From the IMG/VR virus record IMGVR_UViG_2740892233_000025: a DNA stretch of 9,631 bases; one strand, written 5' to 3'. The DNA comes from a virus (Duplodnaviria; Heunggongvirae; Uroviricota; Caudoviricetes). A program made the translations under genes and the position numbers. The number at the start of each line of letters is the position of its first letter. Position 1 is the stretch's first letter. This document shows positions 1 to 9,631 of this stretch, in pieces. The notes beneath the pieces were generated by a model. The model had not been told where the DNA came from and did no database searches. It saw only the letters and a list, made by a program, of their open reading frames with translations.

Positions 1-123
1 TCTCTGGTGTACGGCGTGTTTCCAAACCAGGACGGCACGTTCACCGCAATGACGTATACCAAAAGCAAAACGTTTAAAACCGAAAATGGTGCCCGTCGCT
101 GGCTTGCCAAAAATACCAGCTAA
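1..123 (+). CDS. 3' end of an ORF that starts upstream of the window (…GARRWLAKNTS*); product unknown
   Basis: Frame +1 is open from position 1 to TAA at 121-123 with no start codon in the window. I do not recognise the protein. Confidence 0.35.
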   Translation, partial: SLVYGVFPNQDGTFTAMTYTKSKTFKTENGARRWLAKNTS

Positions 124-321
124 ACCATTTATTGGATTAATTCAATATTCTTGCTGTAGGGGTATAGCCGAGGCCACCAAAGCCCGGAGGTGGTGAAATA
201 AAACCGGGCACAACACGAAGGCGCATTTCCGGTATCCATAAAGAGTCGGTCTTGTCTGTTAAATTTAAATGGTGGGAGTGCGCCTCCGGTTGTGAATAAC
301 AACACTGCTGTGTGTAGTCTT

Positions 322-368
322 GGCGGCATCAGTTTTTTCTTGAAGTTCGACTGATGTCCGCCCTTTTT
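322..368 (+). terminator. Candidate rho-independent terminator (imperfect hairpin plus T-run)
   Basis: ggcggcatcag (322-332) pairs with ctgatgtccgcc (351-362) with one bulge, followed by cttttt (363-368). It lies about 200 nt downstream of the stop at 123 and upstream of kilR. Confidence 0.35.
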
Positions 369-543
369 AAAGTGAATTTTGTGATGCGGTGAATGCGGCT
401 AAGCGCACGCGGCACAGTTAAAAGTCATGTTAGTCCTTATTGGTTTGGGTGGGAAAGCCGACTGTAATTGTTAACTGGTTGCAGTCACCTGGAGGCACCA
501 GGCACCGCATCAACAAAGTTCATTTGTAAAAATGGAGATAATT

Positions 544-765
544 ATGATTGCACATCACTTCGGAACTGATGAAATACCACGTCAGTGTGTGACTCCTGGT
601 GATTATGTTCTTCATGAAGGCCGGACATATATCGCCTCGGCAAACAATATTAAAAAGCGAAAACTTTATATTCGTAACCTGACTACAAAAACATGCATTT
701 CTGACTGCATGATTAAAGTCTTCCTCGGTCGTGATGGTTTACCTGTAAAGGCGGAGTCATGGTGA
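544..765 (+). CDS. kilR: KilR, Rac-prophage killing protein (FtsZ/cell-division inhibitor), 73 aa
   Basis: Translation [51 protein letters not shown]… matches my recollection of K-12 KilR. GGAG at 534-537 sits 6 nt before ATG 544; the ORF-track start at 532 is a less likely in-frame upstream ATG. Stop TGA 763-765 overlaps the next start. Confidence 0.85.
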
Positions 766-935
766 TGACTAAGAAAATAAAATGTGCTTACCACCTTTGC
801 AATAAAGGAATTGAAGAAAGCAAAAGCATTAAAAGACCACTTCATTTCATGCGTGGAGTTATCCCAACGACGGAAATGAAAAAATATTGTAGTGAAAATT
901 GTGCCGAAAAAGACCAGATGGCACACGAACTTTAA
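765..935 (+). CDS. ydaE: YdaE-like small zinc-binding protein (Cys-rich), 56 aa, variant allele
   Basis: [56 protein letters not shown]. Conserved CxxxxC…CxxxC ends, diverged centre relative to the second copy. Start ATG 765 overlaps the kilR stop (gTGATGa). Too short for the supplied ORF track. Confidence 0.7.
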   Translation: MTKKIKCAYHLCNKGIEESKSIKRPLHFMRGVIPTTEMKKYCSENCAEKDQMAHEL

Positions 936-989
936 TTAACTGACTATGCGAAACTGAATTTATGCCAGCAATGGCAGGGATTCGCTCAA

Positions 990-1001
990 CCTTAATTAAG
1001 G
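990..1001. promoter_or_regulatory. Perfect 12-bp palindrome ccttaattaagg overlapping the racC Shine-Dalgarno
   Basis: Seen directly; conserved at 2733-2744 in the second copy. Function unknown; could be a dimeric protein-binding site or a translational element. Confidence 0.25.
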
Positions 1002-1008
1002 AGAAAAA

Positions 1009-1284
1009 ATGATTACCAATTATGAAGTCACTGTTGTAACTACCGATGACATTGTTCACGAGGTTAATCTGGAAGGAAAGCGTATTGGCTACGTGATTAA
1101 AACAGAAAATAAAGAAACCCCATTCACTGTGGTTGATATTGACGGTCCATCAGGCAACGTAAAAACACTTGATGAAGGTGTCACAAAAATGAGTCTGGTT
1201 CACATCGGAAAGAATCTGCCCGCAGAAAAAAAAGCCGGATTTCTGGCAACTCTGATTGCAATGAAATTAAAAGGTGAAATCTGA
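1009..1284 (+). CDS. racC: RacC, Rac-prophage protein of unknown function, 91 aa
   Basis: MITNYEVTVVTTDDIVHEVNLEGKRIGYVIKTENKETPFTVVDIDGPSGNVKTLDEGV… matches my recollection of K-12 RacC. AAGGAG at 999-1004 precedes ATG 1009. Confidence 0.8.
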   Translation: MITNYEVTVVTTDDIVHEVNLEGKRIGYVIKTENKETPFTVVDIDGPSGNVKTLDEGVTKMSLVHIGKNLPAEKKAGFLATLIAMKLKGEI

Positions 1285-1293
1285 AAAAAGAAA

Positions 1294-1312
1294 GCCTGCA
1301 CAACGTGCAGGC
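1294..1312 (+). promoter_or_regulatory. racC-recE intergenic RNA hairpin (copy A)
   Basis: gcctgcac / gtgcaggc 8-bp stem. The same position in copy B (3034-3058) has a different sequence that still pairs (agcctgcg / cgcaggct), i.e. compensatory changes. Confidence 0.35.
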
Positions 1313-1382
1313 CTGAGTGAAGAACCTGGGACATTTATTCATCACTCGCAGTAATTTTAATCTGAGTTGAGGTTAAAAAACA

Positions 1383-2332
1383 ATGAGCACAAAACCACTC
1401 TTCCTTTTACGGAAAGCGAAAAAATCATCCGGTGAACCTGACGTCGTCCTGTGGGCAAGCGACGATTTTGAATCAACCTGTGCCACTTTGGACTACCTGA
1501 TCGTTAAGTCAGGTAAAAAACTGAGCAACTATTTTAAAGCTGTTGCCACAAATTTTCCTGTCGTTAATGACCTTCCCCCTGAAGGTGAGATCGATTTTAC
1601 CTGGAGTGAACGCTATCAACTCAGCAAAGACTCCATGACCTGGGAACTAAAACCGGGAGCAGCGCCAGACGACGTTCACCATCAGGAGGATGCACCGGAA
1701 ACCGAAGAACCGACGGGAGGCCAGGAAGAAAACGCGCAGGCAGACGCCCACGAGGATTGCCAGGATTGCGAAGTCTCTGTAGCCACTTTGCGGTTCACAC
1801 AGCGTCTTCTGCACATTTTTACGTATGCAGCCGGGGATCGAAAATACCTGCATCATGCCACCCGTGAACAACGCAAACACATTACTGCTCTTGAGATGGA
1901 TCAGGAAAACAGCTATGTCCAGAATCTGCTGTTGGCCATACGCAGCATGGCAGAACCGACAACTCTGGATAATGCCGCCCTGCTCCGCCTGACTGATGCA
2001 ATTAAGGCAGTGTTCTCTATCACGAAAAAACATCAGCCCTATGAATTTAAGAATTTCATTTCAGCCTGGCTGGATACCGAACACATTGATCGCGGTCTTC
2101 TGACAAAAGAATGGCGAAAAGGGAATCGTGTTTCACGCATCACTCGCACGGCTTCCGGTGCTAATGCTGGCGGCGGGAACCTCACCGATCGCGGCGAAGG
2201 TTTCGTCCACGATCTGACATCACTGGCGCGCGATGTAGCCACTGGCGTACTGGCCCGTTCAATGGACGTGGACATCTATAACCTTCATCCGGCACACGCT
2301 AAACGCATTGAGGAAATTATCGCTGAAAATAA
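1383..2332 (+). CDS. recE: RecE (exonuclease VIII) N-terminal region, variant allele, 3'-truncated by the N-run at 2333
   Basis: N-terminus [26 protein letters not shown]… and the segment from DRGLLTKEW to EEIIAEN match the second recE copy. Codons ~97-235 (about 1671-2087) are replaced by unrelated sequence ([14 protein letters not shown]…HEDCQDCEV…). The ORF runs into the N-run. Confidence 0.7.
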
Positions 2333-2342
2333 NNNNNNNNNN
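2333..2342. other. N-run (10 nt), contig junction/gap
   Basis: Literal n characters. Upstream flank is mid-recE, downstream flank is mid-kilR, so the flanks are not contiguous biology. Confidence 0.95.
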
Positions 2343-2508
2343 CGATTATGTTCTTCATGAAGGCCGGACATATATTGCCTCGGCAAACAATATTAAAAAG
2401 CGAAAACTATATATTCGTAACCTGACCACAAAAACATGCATTACTGACCGCATGATTAAAGTCTTCCTCGGTCGTGATGGTTTACCTGTAAAGGCGGAGT
2501 CATGGTGA
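2343..2508 (+). CDS. kilR: KilR, 5'-truncated second copy (begins at …[16 protein letters not shown]…)
   Basis: In-frame kilR C-terminal 55 codons straight after the N-run, ending …[12 protein letters not shown]. Differs from copy A at TCITDRM versus TCISDCM. Confidence 0.75.
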
Positions 2509-2678
2509 TGACTAAGAAAATAAAATGTGCTTACCACCTTTGCAAAAAAGACGTTGAAGAAAGCAAAGCTATTGAAAGAATGCTTCACTTCATGCACGGG
2601 ATTTTATCAAAAGACGAACCGAGAAAATATTGCAGTGAAGCTTGTGCCGAAAAAGACCAGATGGCACATGAACTTTAA
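2508..2678 (+). CDS. ydaE: YdaE, Rac-prophage small zinc-binding protein, 56 aa
   Basis: [56 protein letters not shown], as I recall K-12 YdaE. Start overlaps the kilR stop (TGATG). Confidence 0.8.
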   Translation: MTKKIKCAYHLCKKDVEESKAIERMLHFMHGILSKDEPRKYCSEACAEKDQMAHEL

Positions 2679-2752
2679 TTAATTGACTATTCGAAACTGA
2701 ATTTATGCCAGAAATGGCAGGTATTCGCTCAACCTTAATTAAGGAGAAAAAC

Positions 2753-3028
2753 ATGATTACCAATTATGAAGCCACTGTTGTAACTACCGATGACATTGTT
2801 CACGAGGTGAATCTGGAAGGAAAGCGCATTGGCTACGTAATTAAAACAGAAAATAAAGAAACCCCATTCACTGTGGTTGATATCGATGGTCCATCAGGCA
2901 ACGTAAAAACACTTGATGAAGGTGTCAAAAAAATGTGCCTGGTGCATATCGGAAAGAATCTGCCCGCAGAAAAAAAAGCCGAATTTCTGGCAACTCTAAT
3001 TGCAATGAAATTAAAAGGTGAAATCTGA
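2753..3028 (+). CDS. racC: RacC, second copy, 91 aa
   Basis: MITNYEATVVTTDDIVHEVNLEGKRIGYVIKTENKETPFTVVDIDGPSGNVKTLDEGVKKMCLVHIGKNLPAEKKAEFLATLIAMKLKGEI. The ORF-track start at 2705 is an unlikely upstream extension; AAGGAG at 2742-2747 precedes ATG 2753. Confidence 0.85.
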   Translation: MITNYEATVVTTDDIVHEVNLEGKRIGYVIKTENKETPFTVVDIDGPSGNVKTLDEGVKKMCLVHIGKNLPAEKKAEFLATLIAMKLKGEI

Positions 3029-3033
3029 AAGAA

Positions 3034-3058
3034 ATAGCCTGCGTATGGCGCAGGCTAT
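3034..3058 (+). promoter_or_regulatory. racC-recE intergenic RNA hairpin (copy B)
   Basis: atagcctgcg / cgcaggctat 10-bp stem with loop tatgg. Structure is conserved with copy A while the stem sequence differs. Confidence 0.35.
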
Positions 3059-3129
3059 GAACAGTGTGTATCCGGCAAGATCATTCACTGAACAAAACGA
3101 ATTTTAATCTGAGTTGAGGTTAAAAAACA

Positions 3130-6100
3130 ATGAGCACAAAACCACTCTTCCTGTTACGGAAAGCGAAAAAATCATCCGGTGAACCTGACGTCGTCCTGTG
3201 GGCAAGCAACGATTTTGAATCGACCTGTGCCACTCTGGACTACCTGATCGTTAAGTCAGGTAAAAAACTGAGCAGCTATTTTAAAGCTGTTGCCACGAAT
3301 TTTCCTGTCGTTAATGACCTGCCCGCTGAAGGTGAGATCGATTTTACCTGGAGTGAACGCTATCAACTCAGCAAAGACTCCATGACATGGGAACTAAAAC
3401 CGGGAGCAGCACCAGACAACGCTCACTATCAAGGCAATACCAACGTCAACGGCGAAGACATGACTGAGATTGAGGAGAATATGCTACTCCCAATTTCTGG
3501 CCAGGAACTGCCCATTCGTTGGCTTGCTCAACACGGCAGCGAAAAACCGGTAACGCACGTTTCACGCGACGGACTCCAGGCATTACACATTGCTCGGGCT
3601 GAAGAACTACCGGCTGTTACTGCCCTGGCTGTTTCCCACAAAACCAGCCTGCTCGACCCGCTGGAAATTCGCGAACTCCACAAACTGGTTCGTGACACTG
3701 ACAAAGTTTTCCCTAATCCTGGTAATTCAAACCTGGGACTGATAACTGCTTTTTTCGAAGCATACCTGAACGCTGACTACACCGATCGAGGACTGCTGAC
3801 AAAAGAGTGGATGAAGGGTAATCGTGTTTCACACATCACTCGCACGGCTTCCGGTGCTAATGCTGGCGGCGGAAACCTCACCGATCGCGGCGAAGGTTTC
3901 GTACACGATCTGACGTCACTGGCGCGGGACGTAGCCACTGGCGTACTGGCCCGTTCAATGGATCTGGACATCTATAACCTTCATCCGGCACACGCTAAAC
4001 GCATTGAGGAAATTATCGCTGAAAATAAACCACCCTTTTCTGTTTTCCGCGACAAATTCATCACCATGCCTGGCGGGCTGGATTATTCCCGCGCCATCGT
4101 GGTTGCGTCCGTAAAAGAAGCACCAATTGGGATCGAGGTCATCCCCGCGCACGTCACTGAATATCTGAACAAAGTACTGACTGAAACCGATCATGCCAAC
4201 CCTGATCCGGAAANNNNNNNNNNGAAAGAAGCACCAATTGGGATCGAGGTCATCCCCGCACACGTCACTGAATATCTGAACAAAGTACTGACTGAAACCG
4301 ATCATGCCAACCCTGATCCGGAAATCGTGGATATTGCCTGCGGTCGCTCCTCGGCCCCGATGCCGCAACGAGTAACAGAAGAAGGAAAACAGGACGATGA
4401 AGAAAAACCACAACCATCTGGCGCAATGGCAGATGAACAGGCAACGGCTGAAACAGTGGAACCGAATGCAACTGAACATCATCAGAACACGCAGCCGCTG
4501 GATGCTCAGTCACAGGTAAATTCTGTTGATGCGAAATATCAGGAACTGCGNNNNNNNNNNTGCCCCGATGCCGCAGCGAGTAACAGAAGAAGGAAAACAG
4601 GATTATGAAGAAAAACCGCAACCATCTGGAACAACGGCAGTTGAACAGGGAGAGGCTGAAACAATGGAACCGGACGCAACTGAACATCATCAGGACACGC
4701 AGCCGCTGGATGCTCAGTCACAGGTAAATTCTGTTGATGCGAAATATCAGGAACTGCGGGCAGAACTCCATGAAGCCCGGAAAAACATTCCATCAAAAAA
4801 TCCTGTCGATGCCGATAAATTGCTTGCTGCATCACGTGGTGAATTTGTTGACGGAATTAGCGACCCGAACGATCCGAAATGGGTTAAGGGGATCCAGACT
4901 CGCGATTCTGTGTACCAGAACCAGCCAGAAACGGAAAAAATCAGCCCGGATGCGAAACAACCTGAGCCAGTAGTGCAACAGGAACCGGAAATAGTCTGCA
5001 ATGCCTGCGGTCAGACTGGCGGGGATAACTGCCCTGACTGTGGTGCGGTGATGGGCGACGCAACATACCAGGAAACATTCGATGAAGAGAGTCAGGTTGA
5101 AGCTAAGGAAAATGATCCGGAGGAAATGGAAGGCGCTGAACATCCGCACAATGAGAATGCTGGCAGCGATCCGCATCGCGATTGCAGTGATGAAACTGGC
5201 GAAGTCGCAGATCCCGTAATCGTAGAAGACATAGAGCCAGGTATTTATTACGGAATTTCGAATGAGAATTACCACGCGGGTCCCGGTGTCAGTAAGTCTC
5301 AGCTCGATGACATTGCTGATACTCCGGCACTGTATTTGTGGCGTAAAAATGCCCCCGTGGACACCACAAAGACAAAAACGCTCGATTTAGGAACCGCTTT
5401 CCACTGCCGGGTACTTGAGCCGGAAGAATTCAGTAACCGCTTTATCGTAGCACCTGAATTTAACCGCCGGACAAACTCCGGAAAAGAAGAAGAGAAAGCG
5501 TTTCTGAGGGAATGCGCAAGCACAGGAAAAACGGTTATCACTGCCGAAGAAGGCCGGAAAATTGAACTCATGTATCAGAGCGTTATGGCTTTGCCGCTGG
5601 GGCAATGGCTTGTTGAAAGCGCCGGACACGCTGAATCATCAATNNNNNNNNNNTACAAACGCCGGAAAAGAAGAAGAGAAAGCGTTTCTGATGGAATGCG
5701 CAAGCACAGGAAAAACGGTTATCACTGCGGAAGAAGGCCGGAAAATTGAACTCATGTATCAACGCGTTATGGCTTTGCCGCTGGGGCAATGGCTTGTTGA
5801 AAGCGCCGGACACGCTGAATCATCAATTTACTGGGAAGATCCGGAAACAGGAATTTTGTGTCGGTGCCGTCCGGACAAAATTATTCCTGAATTTCACTGG
5901 ATCATGGACGTGAAAACCACAGCGGATATTCAACGATTCAAAACGGCTTATTACGACTACCGCTATCACGTTCAGGATGCATTCTACAGTGACGGTTATG
6001 AAGCACAGTTTGGCGTGCTGCCAACTTTCGTTTTTCTGGTTGCCAGCACAACTGTTGAATGCGGACGTTACCCGGTTGAGATTTTCATGATGGGCGAAGA

Positions 6101-6233
6101 AGCAAAACTGGCAGGCCAGCAGGAATATCACCGCAATCTGAGGACCCTGGCTGACTGCCTGAATACCGATGAATGGCCAGCTATTAAAACGTTATCACTG
6201 CCCCGCTGGGCTAAGGAGTATGCAAATGACTAA
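3130..6233 (+). CDS. recE: RecE, exonuclease VIII (5'-3' dsDNA exonuclease), full gene but broken by three N-run junctions with duplicated flanks
   Basis: Protein matches my recollection of K-12 RecE from [14 protein letters not shown]… to …[13 protein letters not shown]. Pieces are 3130-4213, 4224-4550, 4561-5643 and 5654-6233; each neighbouring pair overlaps by about 100-190 nt of near-identical sequence, so the span (3104 nt) exceeds the expected ~2.6 kb. The frame is kept across the first junction and shifts at the second and third. Stop TAA 6231-6233. Confidence 0.85.
4214..4223. other. N-run (10 nt), contig junction with duplicated flank
   Basis: About 100 nt before the Ns ([33 protein letters not shown]) is repeated straight after, with one mismatch (gcgcacgtc versus gcacacgtc). 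Confidence 0.95.
4551..4560. other. N-run (10 nt), contig junction with duplicated, diverged flank
   Basis: About 190 nt before the Ns ([17 protein letters not shown]…DAKYQEL) is repeated after with roughly 15 substitutions (…GKQDYEE…[26 protein letters not shown]…). Confidence 0.95.
5644..5653. other. N-run (10 nt), contig junction with duplicated, diverged flank
   Basis: About 170 nt ([16 protein letters not shown]…[24 protein letters not shown]) is repeated after the Ns with substitutions (…FLMECAS…MYQRVMAL…). Confidence 0.95.
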
Positions 6234-7035
6234 GCAACCACCTATCGCAAAAGCCGATCTGCAAAAAACCCAGGGAAACCGTGCACCAGCAGCAGTAAAA
6301 AATAACGACGTGATCAGCTTTATTAATCAGCCATCAATGAAAGAGCAACTGGCAGCAGCTCTCCCACGCCATATGACGGCTGAACGAATGATACGTATCG
6401 CCACCACAGAAATTCGTAAGGTTCCGGCGCTAGGAAACTGTGACACCATGAGTTTTGTCAGTGCGATCGTTCAGTGTTCACAGCTCGGCCTTGAGCCAGG
6501 TAGCGCCCTCGGCCACGCATATTTACTGCCTTTTGGTAATAAAAACGAAAAGAGCGGTAAAAAGAACGTTCAGCTAATCATTGGTTATCGCGGCATGATT
6601 GATCTGGCTCGCCGTTCTGGTCAAATCGCCAGCCTGTCAGCCCGTGTTGTCCGTGAAGGTGACGAGTTTAGTTTTGAATTTGGCCTTGATGAAAAGTTAA
6701 TACACCGCCCGGGAGAAAACGAAGATGCACCAGTGACCCACGTCTATGCTGTCGCAAGACTGAAAGACGGAGGGACTCAGTTTGAAGTTATGACGCGCAA
6801 ACAGATTGAACTGGTGCGCAGCCAGAGTAAGGCTGGTAATAACGGGCCATGGGTAACTCACTGGGAAGAAATGGCAAAAAAAACGGCTATTCGTCGCCTG
6901 TTTAAATACCTGCCTGTCTCAATTGAAATCCAGCGTGCAGTATCAATGGATGAAAAGGAACCACTGACAATCGATCCGGCAGACTCCTCTGTATTAACCG
7001 GGGAATACAGTGTAATCGATAATTCAGAAGAATAA
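6226..7035 (+). CDS. recT: RecT, single-strand annealing recombinase, 269 aa
   Basis: [50 protein letters not shown]… matches my recollection of K-12 RecT. AGGAG at 6214-6218 sits 7 nt before ATG 6226; the ORF-track start at 6169 is an in-frame upstream extension. Overlaps the recE stop by 8 nt. Confidence 0.93.
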
Positions 7036-7091
7036 TTCAGCCTGGCGGTGTAATGCACCGCCAACGTGAGACAGTTTTTATGACAAAAATT

Positions 7092-7286
7092 ATGAGATAT
7101 GACGATGTTAAACCATGTCCGTTTTGTGGTTGTCCATCTGTTACAGTGAAAGCAATTTCAGGATATTACCGGGCAAAATGCAACGGATGCGAATCCCGAA
7201 CTGGCTATGGTGGAAGTGAAAAAGAAGCACTCGAAAGATGGAATAAACGAACTACTGGAAATAATAATGGAGGTGTTCATGTATAA
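7092..7286 (+). CDS. ralR: RalR (Lar), restriction-alleviation protein and type I toxin (DNase), 64 aa
   Basis: MRYDDVKPCPFCGCPSVTVKAISGYYRAKCNGCESRTGYGGSEKEALERWNKRTTGNNNGGVHV, a CxxC…CxxC zinc-ribbon protein at the Rac lar/ralR position. In-frame ATG at 7080 (MTKIMRYD…) is an alternative start. Confidence 0.78.
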   Translation: MRYDDVKPCPFCGCPSVTVKAISGYYRAKCNGCESRTGYGGSEKEALERWNKRTTGNNNGGVHV

Positions 7287-7467
7287 AATAACTGCCACTA
7301 TTGAAAAAGAAGGTGGCACTCCTACTAACTGGACAAGATATTCAAAATCTAAATTAACGAAATCAGAATGCGAAAAAATGCTCTCAGGGAAAAAAGAAGC
7401 AGGCGTGTCCAGAGAGCAGAAAGTAAAGCTGATAAATTTTAATTGCGAGAAACTTCTGTCCTCGTGA
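7279..7467 (+). CDS. Small hypothetical protein at the position of Rac ydaC (62 aa from ATG 7279)
   Basis: ORF 7207-7467. GGAGG at 7268-7272 precedes ATG 7279 (MYKITATIEKEGGTPTNWTRYSKSKL…). Overlaps the ralR stop by 8 nt in another frame. I do not recall the ydaC sequence, so the identity is positional only. Confidence 0.5.
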   Translation: MYKITATIEKEGGTPTNWTRYSKSKLTKSECEKMLSGKKEAGVSREQKVKLINFNCEKLLSS

Positions 7468-7522
7468 GTTGCATTATATACAAATTAGAACTTCATAGCT
7501 GATTATTAAAAATCAACCACAC

Positions 7523-7551
7523 CCGCCAGTATTCTGTATATTTACTGGCGG
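7523..7551. promoter_or_regulatory. Palindrome ccgccagta-N11-tactggcgg upstream of xis
   Basis: Perfect 9-bp inverted repeat seen directly; no T-run follows, so it is not a canonical terminator. Possible operator or RNA structure. Confidence 0.3.
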
Positions 7552-7573
7552 TCATATCGTAAGAGGTATGGCA

Positions 7574-7855
7574 ATGAATCTTGTGACACTCAAAACGTGG
7601 GGAAAACTCAGATATCCGGATAACCCACCATCAATATCAACGCTGAGACGATGGGCAAGGAATGGAAACATTTATCCTGCACCTGAACTACACGGGAGGA
7701 GTTACAGGGTGGTTCCGGAAGCTTTCTATATCAACCCAAATAAGGTTGATACCGATATAACACACCATCAGCCTAATGGGCGACAAGGGAGAGACAGTCC
7801 GTTACTGGAGAAGTTAAAACATGCAGCGGAAAAAATACGATCCCAATTTACCTAA
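7574..7855 (+). CDS. xis: Excisionase (Xis-like recombination directionality factor), 93 aa
   Basis: MNLVTLKTWGKLRYPDNPPSISTLRRWARNGNIYPAPELHGRSYRVVPEAFYI… resembles lambda Xis in its N-terminal half. AAGAGG at 7561-7566 sits 7 nt before ATG 7574 (ORF-track start 7568 is too close to the SD). The 3' end overlaps int by 35 nt, as in lambda. Confidence 0.7.
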   Translation: MNLVTLKTWGKLRYPDNPPSISTLRRWARNGNIYPAPELHGRSYRVVPEAFYINPNKVDTDITHHQPNGRQGRDSPLLEKLKHAAEKIRSQFT

Positions 7856-8897
7856 AAACTTAACATATCGAAGGAGGGACAAAGCATATTACTGGCGCAA
7901 CCCTCTGACGAAAGAAGAATTTACACTAGGTAAAATTTCAAGAAGAGATGCAGTAGCGCAGGCAATTGAAGCAAATCATTATATATACAAAAACTACTCT
8001 CCTGCTGCCTTAATTGAAAAACTAAAAGGGTTCGACTCATTTACTATGGCAGACTGGATTGAACGTTACAAAACGATTCTTATAAGGAGAAAAGTGTCCA
8101 GAAATACTTATAAAATTCGGGTAAATCAACTGGAGACAATAAAAGAAAAATTAGGAGGGGTTTTACTGACAGAAATAACCACTCGCCATATTGCCGAGTT
8201 TCTTGATTTGTGGATTGAAGGAGGGAAAAACACGATGGCAGGATCAATGCGTTCTGTGTTATCTGATATGTTCCGCGAGGCCATTGTTGAAGGACGTATA
8301 TCTCAAAATCCAGTAACGCCAACAAGAGCACCGAAAATAGTAGTTACAAGAGAACGGCTGAAACTAAAGACATACAACTGCATCAGGGAGGCAGCAGATC
8401 AACTTCCGACATGGTTCCCATTAGCTATGGACTTAGCCCTTGTAACAGGACAACGTCGCGAAGACATAACAAATATGCGGTTCAGTGAGATTTATGATGA
8501 TCGTCTCCACATCAGGCAAATTAAGACAGGAATGATGATTGCTATCCCCCTGTCACTCAGCCTTCCTGTCGCTGGTTTACGACTTGGTACAGTAGTTGAA
8601 CAGTGCCGCATGGTAAGTAGGGGGGATTATCTAATCAGTGCCGGGATTAGAAAAAACAGCCCTGACGGCAGCATTCACCCGGACGGCCTGACAAAGAAAT
8701 TTGTCGCAGCCAGAAAATTAACAGGTATCCAGTTCAGTGAAAACCCACCAACTTTTCACGAGATCAGAAGCCTGGCTGGACGATTGTACAAAGAAACATG
8801 TGGGGAAGAATTTGCTCAACGTCTACTTGGCCACACATCGGAGAAGACAACAAAAATGTATCTTGATGAGAGAGAAAAAACGTACTTACTGCTCTGA
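7821..8897 (+). CDS. int: Lambda-family tyrosine integrase, 358 aa
   Basis: Collinear with lambda Int as I recall it, e.g. [24 protein letters not shown] versus lambda LAMELAVVTGQRVGDLCEMKWSDI, and [19 protein letters not shown]…[18 protein letters not shown] versus lambda FEGDPPTFHELRSLSARLY…LLGHKSDTMASQYRDDRG. It is not the P4-type IntR of K-12 Rac. Confidence 0.9.
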
Positions 8898-8944
8898 TTT
8901 TAACGTAAATGGATTGTTAAATGTGTTTTGGTTGTGATATAACC

Positions 8945-9047
8945 AAAAAAGACCGGAATACAGAAATTCGAGTAAATTTCGAGTAATTTCGGGGAGACGT
9001 TTGCAACTAATTGATTTTAAATACAATTAAAAAAAGACCGAATACGA
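8945..9047. other. attL-like junction: P' arm with direct repeats plus a core that coincides with the sdsR 3' terminator
   Basis: ttcgagtaa repeated at 8967-8975 and 8978-8986 (11-bp phasing, candidate arm-type Int sites). Core candidate aaaaaaagaccgaatac at 9029-9045; a near-copy aaaaaagaccggaatacag at 8945-8963. Confidence 0.5.
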
Positions 9048-9131
9048 TTCCTGTATTCGGTCCAGGGAAATGGCTCTTGGGAGAGAGCCGTGCGCTAAAA
9101 GTTGGCATTAATGCAGGCTTAGTTGCCTTGC
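9029..9131 (-). ncRNA. sdsR: SdsR (RyeB) sRNA, sigma-S-dependent, about 103 nt
   Basis: Minus-strand sequence GCAAGGCAACUAAGCCUGCAUUAAUGCC…GACCGAAUACAGGAAUCGUAUUCGGUC plus U7 matches my recollection of E. coli SdsR. The terminator hairpin has a 10-bp perfect stem (9036-9045 / 9053-9062). A sigma-S-type -10 lies upstream and the expected neighbour yebY is adjacent. Confidence 0.7.
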
Positions 9132-9258
9132 CCTTTAAGAATAGATGACGACGCCAGGTTTTCCAGTTTGCGTGCAAAATGGTCAATAAAAAGCGTGGTG
9201 GTCATCAGCTGAAATGTTAAAAACCGCCCGTTCTGGTGAAAGAACTGAGGCGGTTTTT
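9034..9258 (+). ncRNA. ryeA: RyeA (SraC) sRNA, antisense to sdsR; 5' end uncertain
   Basis: In E. coli ryeA is transcribed opposite to and fully covers sdsR. The + strand terminator at 9224-9260 is the likely 3' end. A candidate promoter ttgcaa-N15-tacaat (9001-9027) lies on the prophage side of the core, so the 5' end may be phage-remodelled. Confidence 0.35.
9134..9170 (-). promoter_or_regulatory. sdsR promoter, sigma-S-type extended -10 (tctattcttaaa)
   Basis: Minus-strand tctattcttaaa at 9145-9134 resembles the sigma-S -10 consensus and sits directly upstream of the sdsR 5' end at 9131. Confidence 0.45.
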
Positions 9259-9260
9259 TT
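9224..9260. terminator. Bidirectional rho-independent terminator (ryeA on + strand, yebY on - strand)
   Basis: Interrupted hairpin ccgcc-c-gttct / agaac-tga-ggcgg flanked by an A-run (9219-9223) and T7 (9254-9260). Confidence 0.6.
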
Positions 9261-9289
9261 ATTGGAAATCAAAAGGCTATTTTAGGTAA

Positions 9290-9631
9290 TTAACAGAGTT
9301 TTTCAGCTCGTTCTATAAACGGTGCCAGACTCATTTTTTCGCCGGGATTGTTAGGATCATCAATCTGAATCACCGAAATGGGTTGGGCTTTAGTCTTCCC
9401 ACTGGCAACTTCCTTTTGTGCGATATCGTTTAAAGGATACTGCACGAGGGTACTTGGGTTAATGACATACAAAGCATTACCCGGTCTGCAAGTCAGCATC
9501 ACCTCTTCGCGATTAAACGCCCATTTGTCTTTACCCACTTCAAAACGACTGACGGTAATCACCTGCGGTGCAGCCAGCGCCGCTGCAGAACTGGTGAGTA
9601 ACAGAAACGTCAGAATACTTTTTTTCATCAT
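9290..9631 (-). CDS. yebY: Small exported protein with N-terminal signal peptide and two Cys (YebY-like), 113 aa; host flanking gene
   Basis: [24 protein letters not shown]… is a clear Sec signal peptide. The size and the position next to sdsR/ryeA fit the E. coli pphA-sdsR-yebY arrangement. The symbol rests on that context and an imperfect recollection of the sequence. The start codon sits at the window edge. Confidence 0.6.

Follow-up and report, generated by a model that had tools for sequence, protein, structure and literature searches.

The window analysed here, a stretch of 9,631 nt, carries a second copy of kilR-ydaE-racC-recE(5′) together with a fragmented recE, and the question it raises is whether this arrangement is a real tandem duplication or a product of assembly. 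Both features were pointed out in the initial annotation and both are genuine properties of the record. The window is the opening 9.6 kb of the short-read draft scaffold CCPX01000164.1 (NCBI GCA_000752875.1); a literature search found no paper mentioning CCPX01 or GCA_000752875. The record was identified by an exact protein match of the ORF that crosses the first N-run, whereas a pattern across the first junction, Ns included, had no match in a scan of genome contigs. Taken at face value, the record has two tandem copies, as would be expected if kilR-ydaE-racC-recE5′ had been partially duplicated inside a single prophage and the Ns stood for small sequencing gaps. We hold with high confidence that the apparent duplication is instead a scaffolding artefact of the draft assembly, in which two Rac-like prophages were mixed.

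Four runs of 10 N (2333-2342, 4214-4223, 4551-4560 and 5644-5653) break the window up into five segments, A to E; the structural boundaries coincide with these runs in four of four cases. The public record CCPX01000164.1 has the runs too, and masking by the data provider was ruled out as their origin, since they occur in the NCBI copy and have duplicated flanks. BLAST of the segments against each other revealed flank duplications of 100 nt with 1 mismatch for B/C (E 3e-49), 197 nt with 15 mismatches for C/D (E 5e-80) and 173 nt with 5 mismatches for D/E (E 3e-82). With the initial mismatched base included, the arms measure 101 nt with 2 mismatches, 198 nt with 16 and 174 nt with 6, respectively. 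The N coordinates and these alignments bear out the earlier observation that the runs are bordered by imperfect repeats. The first junction had been read as a different kind of join, which did not hold: A (600-2332) and B (2343-4028) overlap as well, with 91-93% identity over 1095 + 246 nt. This junction looks like mid-recE joined to mid-kilR because a block without nucleotide similarity (1684-2088 versus 3431-3784; 405 and 354 nt) interrupts the overlap. Copies that are only ~91% identical, that differ by such a non-homologous block and that are joined through Ns, with no continuous sequence between them, argue against a tandem duplication.

The segments were then assigned to two alleles, for which we used as references the loci L001 (allele 1) and L003 (allele 2), both located on one chromosome, NZ_CP074958.1. 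The resulting map is given below, with "RefSeq" marking genes taken from the RefSeq annotation of L001.

1-2332 (+), segment A: allele 1 (Rac-like prophage on the yebY side), 100% over 2332 nt to L001 6001-8332
1-123 (+), A: 3′ end of a DUF1391 gene (RefSeq)
544-765 (+), A: kilR (RefSeq)
765-935 (+), A: ydaE (RefSeq)
1009-1284 (+), A: racC-like gene (RefSeq)
1383-2332 (+), A: 5′ part of recE, cut (RefSeq)
2333-2342 (no strand), N buffer 1, 10 N
2343-4213 (+), segment B: allele 2 (canonical Rac, ttcA), 1871 nt with 1 mismatch to L003 6102-7972
2343-2508 (+), B: kilR, 5′-truncated
2508-2678 (+), B: ydaE
2753-3028 (+), B: racC
3130-4213 (+), B: 5′ part of recE
4214-4223 (no strand), N buffer 2
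4224-4550 (+), segment C: internal recE, allele 1, 100% to L001 8417-8743
4551-4560 (no strand), N buffer 3
4561-5643 (+), segment D: internal recE, mostly allele 2, 1083 nt with 8 mismatches to L003 8001-9083
5644-5653 (no strand), N buffer 4
5654-9631 (+), segment E: allele 1, 100% over 3978 nt to L001 9455-13432
to 6233 (+), E: 3′ end of recE (RefSeq)
6226-7035 (+), E: recT (RefSeq)
7092-7286 (+), E: ralR (RefSeq)
7279-7467 (+), E: DUF1187 gene (RefSeq)
7574-7855 (+), E: excisionase gene (RefSeq)
7821-8897 (+), E: integrase gene (RefSeq)
9025-9169, E: SraC/RyeA-SdsR/RyeB (Rfam match)
9290-9631 (minus strand), E: yebY

The order kilR, ydaE, racC, recE, recT, ralR/RalA, excisionase and integrase is that of a Rac-type RecET module, a call based on the RefSeq annotation of the reference loci and on Pfam families in the record's gene calls. 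Its recE contains a DUF3799 nuclease domain, and the RalA sRNA was matched with 219 bits (Rfam). The boundary between prophage and chromosome lies near 9027/9028, as genomes without the prophage align from window position 9028 onward only.

No base of segments A, C and E differs from the Rac-like prophage adjoining yebY/ryeA-ryeB in complete genomes of the O26:H11 lineage, a prophage found in O26:H11, O111:H11 and O103 EHEC (for example NZ_CP074958.1 2297819-2305250); it agrees with the window in gene order from kilR to integrase and in its chromosomal junction. The window differs from it in that 84 nt and 711 nt are represented by the B and D paths alone, with 4 allele-2 bases. For segments B and D the match is with the canonical Rac prophage at ttcA, at ~99.7% (1 and 8 mismatches). 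The O26:H11 genomes contain this second locus too, with kilR, ydaE, racC and recE annotated, and B is 99.9% identical to it; D shows 25 mismatches to allele 1. The two loci lie ~640 kb apart in the same complete genomes, the second at about 2942700-2949600 of NZ_CP074958.1. The arrangement kilR-ydaE-racC-recE-recT-ralR-xisR-intR at ttcA is known from the Rac module of E. coli K-12, and B and D correspond to the Rac locus of O26:H11; unlike in K-12, these pieces are embedded in the scaffold of a different prophage, and their true neighbours (Rac recT, intR and ttcA) lie outside the window. The pieces should not be merged, because the home of B and D is a different locus, Rac at ttcA.

Exactly two alleles explain every base of the window. 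At all nine mismatches of B and D to Rac, the window has the other allele's base and never a novel one; the 34 distinguishing sites in D divide into 26 with the allele-2 base and 8 with the allele-1 base, again with none novel. A third allele was considered and proved unnecessary for every base. The allele-1 locus is present in 158 complete genomes, and among the best matches listed it spans either 7,432 nt or, with an IS600 insertion, ~8.7 kb, with one kilR...recE set in each case. Such single-copy spans, and the fact that each copy in the window matches its own, separate locus in related complete genomes, are further evidence against a tandem duplication.

Two E. coli strains sequenced together, through contamination or in a mixed culture, and with one Rac-like prophage each, might have contributed the same two alleles. 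The window alone does not separate paralogues from strain variants, and both would leave an equal signature in the assembly graph. However, the two alleles (100% and 99.3-99.9%) coexist in the same closed chromosomes, directly so in NZ_CP074958.1, and at least 17 of the best 25 allele-1 genomes are also among the best allele-2 matches, at another position. Segment E moreover continues as 4 kb of pure allele 1 into unique chromosome without further graph bubbles, which a mixture should have added. We consider a mixed sample highly unlikely, and both alleles appear to come from one genome. Of the two sources initially proposed, paralogous prophages and a mixed population, the former is supported by the presence of both prophages in the same complete genomes and the latter is not needed. 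The source strain probably belongs to, or lies near, the O26:H11/O111:H11 EHEC lineage.

The exact positions of the segment ends reveal how the pieces were joined. Each of the four 3′ ends stops exactly 64 nt inside a run that the two alleles share without a difference (67 nt for A, 92 nt for B, and 190 and 79 nt), and all four 5′ ends fall on the first differing base following a shared run (offset 0), the run before B being 599 nt long in the aligned region and 770 nt in full. This asymmetry of 0 at the 5′ side and 64 at the 3′ side gives k = 65, an odd value, and a model of de Bruijn-graph nodes with k = 65 predicted 8 of 8 boundaries. By rough arithmetic, taking ~11 possible boundaries in 4.2 kb of each allele, such a register would arise by chance with a probability of the order of 1e-20. 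In each duplicated flank pair, the two members are the arms of a single predicted bubble (1733/1686, 101/101, 198/198 and 174/174 nt), with the following coordinates.

600-2332 (+), bubble 1, allele-1 arm, the last 1733 nt of A, separated by N buffer 1 from the allele-2 arm
2343-4028 (+), bubble 1, allele-2 arm
4113-4213 (+), bubble 2, allele-2 arm
4224-4324 (+), bubble 2, allele-1 arm, in C
4325-4352 (+), shared node of 28 nt, in C
4353-4550 (+), bubble 3, allele-1 arm, in C
4561-4758 (+), bubble 3, allele-2 arm, in D, followed by a collapsed stretch
4885-5011 (+), allele-1 tract in D, 8 consecutive distinguishing sites
5470-5643 (+), bubble 4, allele-2 arm, in D
5654-5827 (+), bubble 4, allele-1 arm, in E

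Every boundary coincides with an N-run and with a k-mer-register breakpoint, which speaks against a genuine tandem duplication, and each of the three additional "duplications" of 101-198 nt within recE would break the gene. With these observations added to the allele matches, we regard such a duplication as very improbable. The doubt that the initial annotation had cast on a true duplication is thereby supported, by the matches to two separate loci and by the register alike.

The origin of the scaffold may be pictured as follows. In a lineage with two Rac-like prophages carrying paralogous kilR-ydaE-racC-recE-recT modules, stretches of at least 65 nt that are identical in both prophages would collapse to shared nodes of a k = 65 graph, and the diverged stretches between them would open into bubbles with two arms. 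Those with short arms (65, 65 and 96 nt) would be reduced to a single path and those with long arms (101, 174, 198 and ~1,700 nt) would be kept. The scaffolder would then take the two arms of a kept bubble for neighbouring unique nodes and write them in series, with a buffer of the minimum length, 10 N, in between. The outcome would be a walk alternating between alleles 1, 2, 1, 2 and 1 that mimics a tandem duplication and leaves recE in five pieces. In the window, arms of 65, 65 and 96 nt occur once and arms of 101, 171, 174, 198 and 1530/1483 nt occur twice.

Velvet requires an odd k, leaves the first k-1 bases out of its node sequences and outputs gaps under 10 as 10 N; its max_branch_length is 100 by default. 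The 0/64 asymmetry, the odd k (65) and the 10 N in every gap all match these Velvet-type conventions, and we infer that the assembler was Velvet with the Pebble scaffolder. A literature search found no direct statement of the 10-N minimum gap or of the max_branch_length default. Pebble merges neighbouring nodes without a resolved path between them using a buffer of Ns (PMC2793427), and the removal of bubbles by Velvet is controlled by max_branch_length (PMC4120145, PMC6356778). Misassembly at collapsed repeats or unresolved bubbles by Velvet Tour Bus and Pebble (Zerbino et al. 2009, PMC2793427) resembles the present case in its k-1 breakpoints against paralogue-shared sequence, in the reduction of short bubbles to one path, in the N buffers joining unresolved nodes and in its chimeric consensus paths. 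In the usual de Bruijn misassembly, bubble arms are merged or left as separate contigs, whereas here four bubbles have both arms placed serially in one scaffold.

The same paralogue problem could also have surfaced in another tool chain, in which contigs are ordered against a reference and joined by a fixed 10-N spacer. Some contig-ordering scripts do use fixed spacers of this length, and B and D would map to the Rac-like region of a reference with one such prophage. However, stand-alone de Bruijn contigs normally have the k-1 overlap at both ends, in contrast to the 0 nt (5′) and 64 nt (3′) found here, a pattern expected if node sequences were appended inside the graph. Under the k = 65 model, each of the internal segments B, C and D has arms of one and the same allele at its two ends, which indicates read-based phasing. 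Segment C, moreover, is only 327 nt long. Reference ordering seems quite unlikely to us.

Some details count against our explanation by graph-internal scaffolding of paralogues. A 191-nt bubble occurs only once, as a single path, contrary to the length rule, and the allele-2 arm of the 167-nt bubble after it is absent from the window. A shared run of 96 nt (707-802 and 2450-2545) is unbroken in A and B, though runs of 67-92 nt act as breakpoints elsewhere. The 191-nt bubble and the 96-nt run are thus the exceptions to a simple Velvet length rule. In addition, the start of the scaffold (L001 5999) lies 170 nt inside the 770-nt shared run, a position not predicted by the two-allele model; a third allele may be needed to explain it.

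The sites at which B and D depart from Rac were considered separately for each segment. Segment B has the allele-1 base at site 4032. The same base is found in a natural Rac allele on a MAG contig that was matched by an 83-nt B-specific pattern, and the view that the site necessarily marks a popped bubble was dropped. This single site is ambiguous because the base occurs in that natural allele. Segment D, with its 8 other-allele sites, is probably an assembly chimera. Shared runs of 190 nt and 70 nt flank its allele-1 tract (4885-5011). Among 5,426 complete E. coli genomes, none matches the switch region 4685-5095 at 100%, and the best match reaches 99.3%. The tract reflects either a chimeric path or local gene conversion. 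We give a small chance to the latter, a real patch transferred from the yebY-side recE to the Rac recE via the flanking shared runs. If so, two co-resident RecET prophages would homogenise each other; there would then never have been a bubble at the tract, which would account for the 191-nt bubble being the sole long one with a single path.

Under the scaffolding artefact, the earlier description as unmerged contigs is upheld, but its question of which copy is real is replaced by a different answer: both copies are real and their juxtaposition is not. Deletion of the redundant arms restored a sequence of exactly 7,432 nt with 4 mismatches to the reference and an intact recE of 883 aa, and the allele-2 path was reconstructed as exactly 2,982 nt. 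The value of this correction is practical only, and no new biology is implied. Uncorrected, the record would mislead counts of recE/recT copies, prophage typing and the training of gene models. The 0/64 register offers a simple recogniser of the same artefact, namely 10-N gaps with near-identical flanks whose ends are fixed k-1 bases into shared sequence. The gene calls of the record comprise a truncated kilR, two copies each of ydaE and racC, and recE in five fragments. Three chimeric ORFs among these calls, of 325, 492 and 393 aa, cross N-runs and have out-of-frame tails, and a public protein collection already lists at least the one of 325 aa.

The window corresponds to bases 3-9633 of the public scaffold CCPX01000164.1 (58,544 nt; NCBI GCA_000752875.1), and its four N-runs of 10 nt each (2333-2342, 4214-4223, 4551-4560, and 5644-5653) are already present in that NCBI record. 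When the five segments set apart by these runs (A to E) were compared with each other by pairwise BLAST, the flanks were found to overlap over 100 nt with 1 mismatch at junction B/C, 197 nt with 15 mismatches at C/D, and 173 nt with 5 mismatches at D/E. Chance matches were discounted because the E-values ranged from 1e-49 to 1e-82, and the imperfectly duplicated flanks described in the initial annotation were thus confirmed. The first junction, previously regarded as a different kind of join, proved to be an overlap too: A 601-2332 aligns to B 2344-4028 with 91-93% identity, the alignment being broken by a block without nucleotide similarity (1684-2088 versus 3431-3784). All four junctions are therefore overlaps of imperfectly matching sequence.

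A megablast search with the full window covered 5,426 complete E. coli genomes and found the locus in 158 of them, the best matches belonging to the O26:H11 / O111:H11 EHEC lineage. The locus spans 7,432 nt in the best complete genomes, or ~8.7 kb with IS600 in recE; the window measures 9,631 nt. Strain 03_3013 (NZ_CP074958.1) was taken as the reference for allele comparison. Its chromosome carries both alleles, ~640 kb apart: allele 1 (locus L001) is a Rac-like prophage whose integrase adjoins the SraC/RyeA-SdsR/RyeB sRNA locus and yebY, and allele 2 (locus L003) is the canonical Rac, annotated kilR-ydaE-racC-recE-recT-ralR-xisR-intR, beside ttcA.

Segments of the window and their matches to the two alleles of strain 03_3013
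A, 1-2332: L001 6001-8332, 100%; allele 2 (L003), 93-94%
B, 2343-4213: allele 1 (L001), 91-96%; L003 6102-7972, 1 mismatch in 1871 nt
C, 4224-4550: L001 8417-8743, 100%; allele 2 (L003), 94.8%
D, 4561-5643: allele 1 (L001), 25 mismatches; L003 8001-9083, 8 mismatches in 1083 nt
E, 5654-9631: L001 9455-13432, 100%; allele 2 (L003), 94.8%

From these matches, the order along the scaffold is allele 1 / 2 / 1 / 2 / 1. No base in the window is novel, every mismatch of B or D to allele 2 being the allele-1 base. This holds for the sole mismatch in B (window 4032) and for all eight of the consecutive sites at which D differs (4885-5011). The 34 allele-distinguishing sites in D read, in order, 16 allele-2, 8 allele-1, and 10 allele-2, with the two switches in shared runs 190 nt and 70 nt long. 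The switch region (4685-5095) had no perfect match in the 5,426 complete genomes (best 99.3%). The only mildly novel possibility here is that the two recE paralogues underwent local gene conversion.

Alleles 1 and 2 were then aligned and their identical (shared) runs listed. The 3' ends of A, B, C, and D each fall 64 nt inside a shared run (of 67, 92, 190, and 79 nt, respectively), and the 5' ends of B, C, D, and E each fall at the first differing base past one (599 nt in the alignment and 770 nt in full for B; 80, 92, and 182 nt for the others). This is the pattern of de Bruijn-graph nodes spelled out by the final base of every k-mer, with k-1 = 64. A model with k = 65, in which an allele-specific node begins at the first differing base and ends 64 nt after the last and nodes split at shared runs of at least 65 nt, predicts all eight segment boundaries; by rough arithmetic, with ~11 candidate boundaries in every 4.2 kb of each allele, the probability that all eight match exactly by chance is ~1e-20. 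A shared run of 96 nt (707-802 and 2450-2545) is unbroken, with no N-run, in both A and B, although shorter runs of 67-92 nt did act as breakpoints. The start of the scaffold itself, at L001 5999 and 170 nt inside the 770-nt shared run (L001 5830-6599), is not predicted by the two-allele model; it would fit a third DUF1391-region paralogue that differs at L001 5934.

In the k = 65 model, the two members of each duplicated flank pair are alternative arms of a single bubble, a stretch of the graph where the alleles differ.

Bubbles written as two arms
Bubble 1: 600-2332 (allele 1) and 2343-4028 (allele 2), 1733 and 1686 nt
Bubble 2: 4113-4213 (allele 2) and 4224-4324 (allele 1), 101 and 101 nt
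Bubble 3: 4353-4550 (allele 1) and 4561-4758 (allele 2), 198 and 198 nt
Bubble 4: 5470-5643 (allele 2) and 5654-5827 (allele 1), 174 and 174 nt

Four further bubbles have only one path: allele 1 is kept in a 65-nt SNP bubble and in one of 191 nt, allele 2 in one of 96 nt and in a second 65-nt SNP bubble. Arms of up to 96 nt thus appear once and those of at least 101 nt twice. The 191-nt bubble alone departs from this; one of its arms was possibly lost to a coverage cut-off, or it is possibly a genuine gene-conversion patch. Shared nodes are written once; that of the 92-nt run, 28 nt long and found only in C, exactly fills the interval separating B from D on the Rac coordinates. Phasing across the shared nodes is correct, since B, C, and D each start and finish in arms of the same allele. 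Joining A, window 4029-4112, C, window 4759-5469, and E restores an allele-1 path of exactly 7,432 nt, which has 4 mismatches to the reference, all in single-path bubbles, and encodes an intact RecE of 883 aa. The allele-2 path (B, 28 nt from C, and D) has a length of exactly 2,982 nt, and each of its 9 mismatches is an allele-1 base.

These features are best explained by a de Bruijn-graph assembly, at k = 65, of one genome with two Rac-like prophages. In such an assembly, stretches common to both would collapse and short bubbles would be left with one path; the arms of longer bubbles, which each have single-copy depth, would pass for adjacent unique nodes and be linked through a minimal buffer of Ns. 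Velvet leaves out the first k-1 bases of a node sequence, accepts only odd k, writes gaps below 10 as 10 N, and has a default maximum bubble length of 100. Its bubble removal is governed by max_branch_length (PMC4120145, PMC6356778). We are highly confident that the window structure is a general scaffolding artefact, and lean toward Velvet as the specific assembler. Concatenation of finished contigs along a reference fits less well, given that the shared-sequence overlap is asymmetric (0/64) and the arms are in phase.

A real tandem duplication is contradicted on several counts: the copies share only 91% identity, each is identical to a different locus, every boundary carries an N-run and falls in k-mer register, and the complete genomes listed have single-copy spans. 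The two loci and the register bear out the earlier reading of unmerged paralogous prophages. That reading had also allowed for a mixed population. A mixed culture would give the same graph, but it is unnecessary as the source of the two alleles: the closest complete genomes carry both (of the 25 best allele-1 genomes, at least 17 are also among the best allele-2 matches listed, at another position), and E runs on as allele 1 alone for 4 kb without another bubble. What the N-runs mark is, with the same high confidence, a scaffolding artefact of an ordinary kind in a publicly available draft genome and no biological structure; the two Rac-like prophages with RecET that the O26:H11 lineage carries are already represented in annotated complete genomes.

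Among the gene calls on CCPX01000164.1 are a KilR fragment of 54 aa, ydaE and racC for a second time, a C-terminal piece of RecE (192 aa), and three chimeric ORFs of 325, 492, and 393 aa (scaffold 1385-5751, window 1383-5749). Each chimera crosses an N-run and ends in an out-of-frame tail; they are products of the assembly artefact. The 325-aa chimera, across the first N-run, was found in one public record only, CCPX01000164.1. At least one chimera (the 325-aa product) is already indexed in a public protein collection.

The boundary between prophage and chromosome lies at ~9027/9028, prophage-free genomes including K-12 MG1655 aligning only from 9028 on. It coincides with the edge of two overlapping sRNA genes, and the allele-1 prophage therefore directly abuts the 3' end of sdsR. 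Integrase-side sequence is contiguous with yebY in only 228 of the 5,426 complete genomes.

sRNA genes in the window
9025-9169, plus strand: SraC/RyeA, at the boundary
9029-9128, minus strand: SdsR/RyeB, overlapping SraC/RyeA
7285-7463, minus strand: RalA sRNA, 219 bits

In the N-terminal region of recE, a 405-nt block of allele 1 (1684-2088) is replaced by 354 nt in allele 2 (3431-3784), which accounts for RecE lengths of 883 aa versus 866 aa. The blocks encode ~135 versus ~118 aa, unrelated by eye, between flanks that are >90% identical; this resembles a cassette exchange in a portion of RecE that lies outside the C-terminal nuclease domain. In several O26-lineage genomes (e.g. 20.1, H19, RM6927) the yebY-side prophage has IS600 within recE (5322-6478 in the O26-lineage locus L002), and recE is then annotated as two pseudogene parts.

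The allele-1 base of site 4032 is also present in the natural Rac allele of a MEGAHIT contig (JAFAEO010000035.1, 1-5341) from the MAG 'Proteobacteria bacterium isolate OH_SBlB_131', a species representative in its genome collection. The E. coli Rac-type kilR-recE region of this contig is 99.95% identical to segment B and may be E. coli-derived sequence binned into the MAG.

The type I toxin-antitoxin pair RalR/RalA lies at 7092-7467. In the reference strain, ralR is annotated as 195 nt in the yebY-side prophage versus 150 nt in the canonical Rac, and CCPX01000164.1 calls a longer 77-aa ORF there, with a Lar_restr_allev Pfam match.
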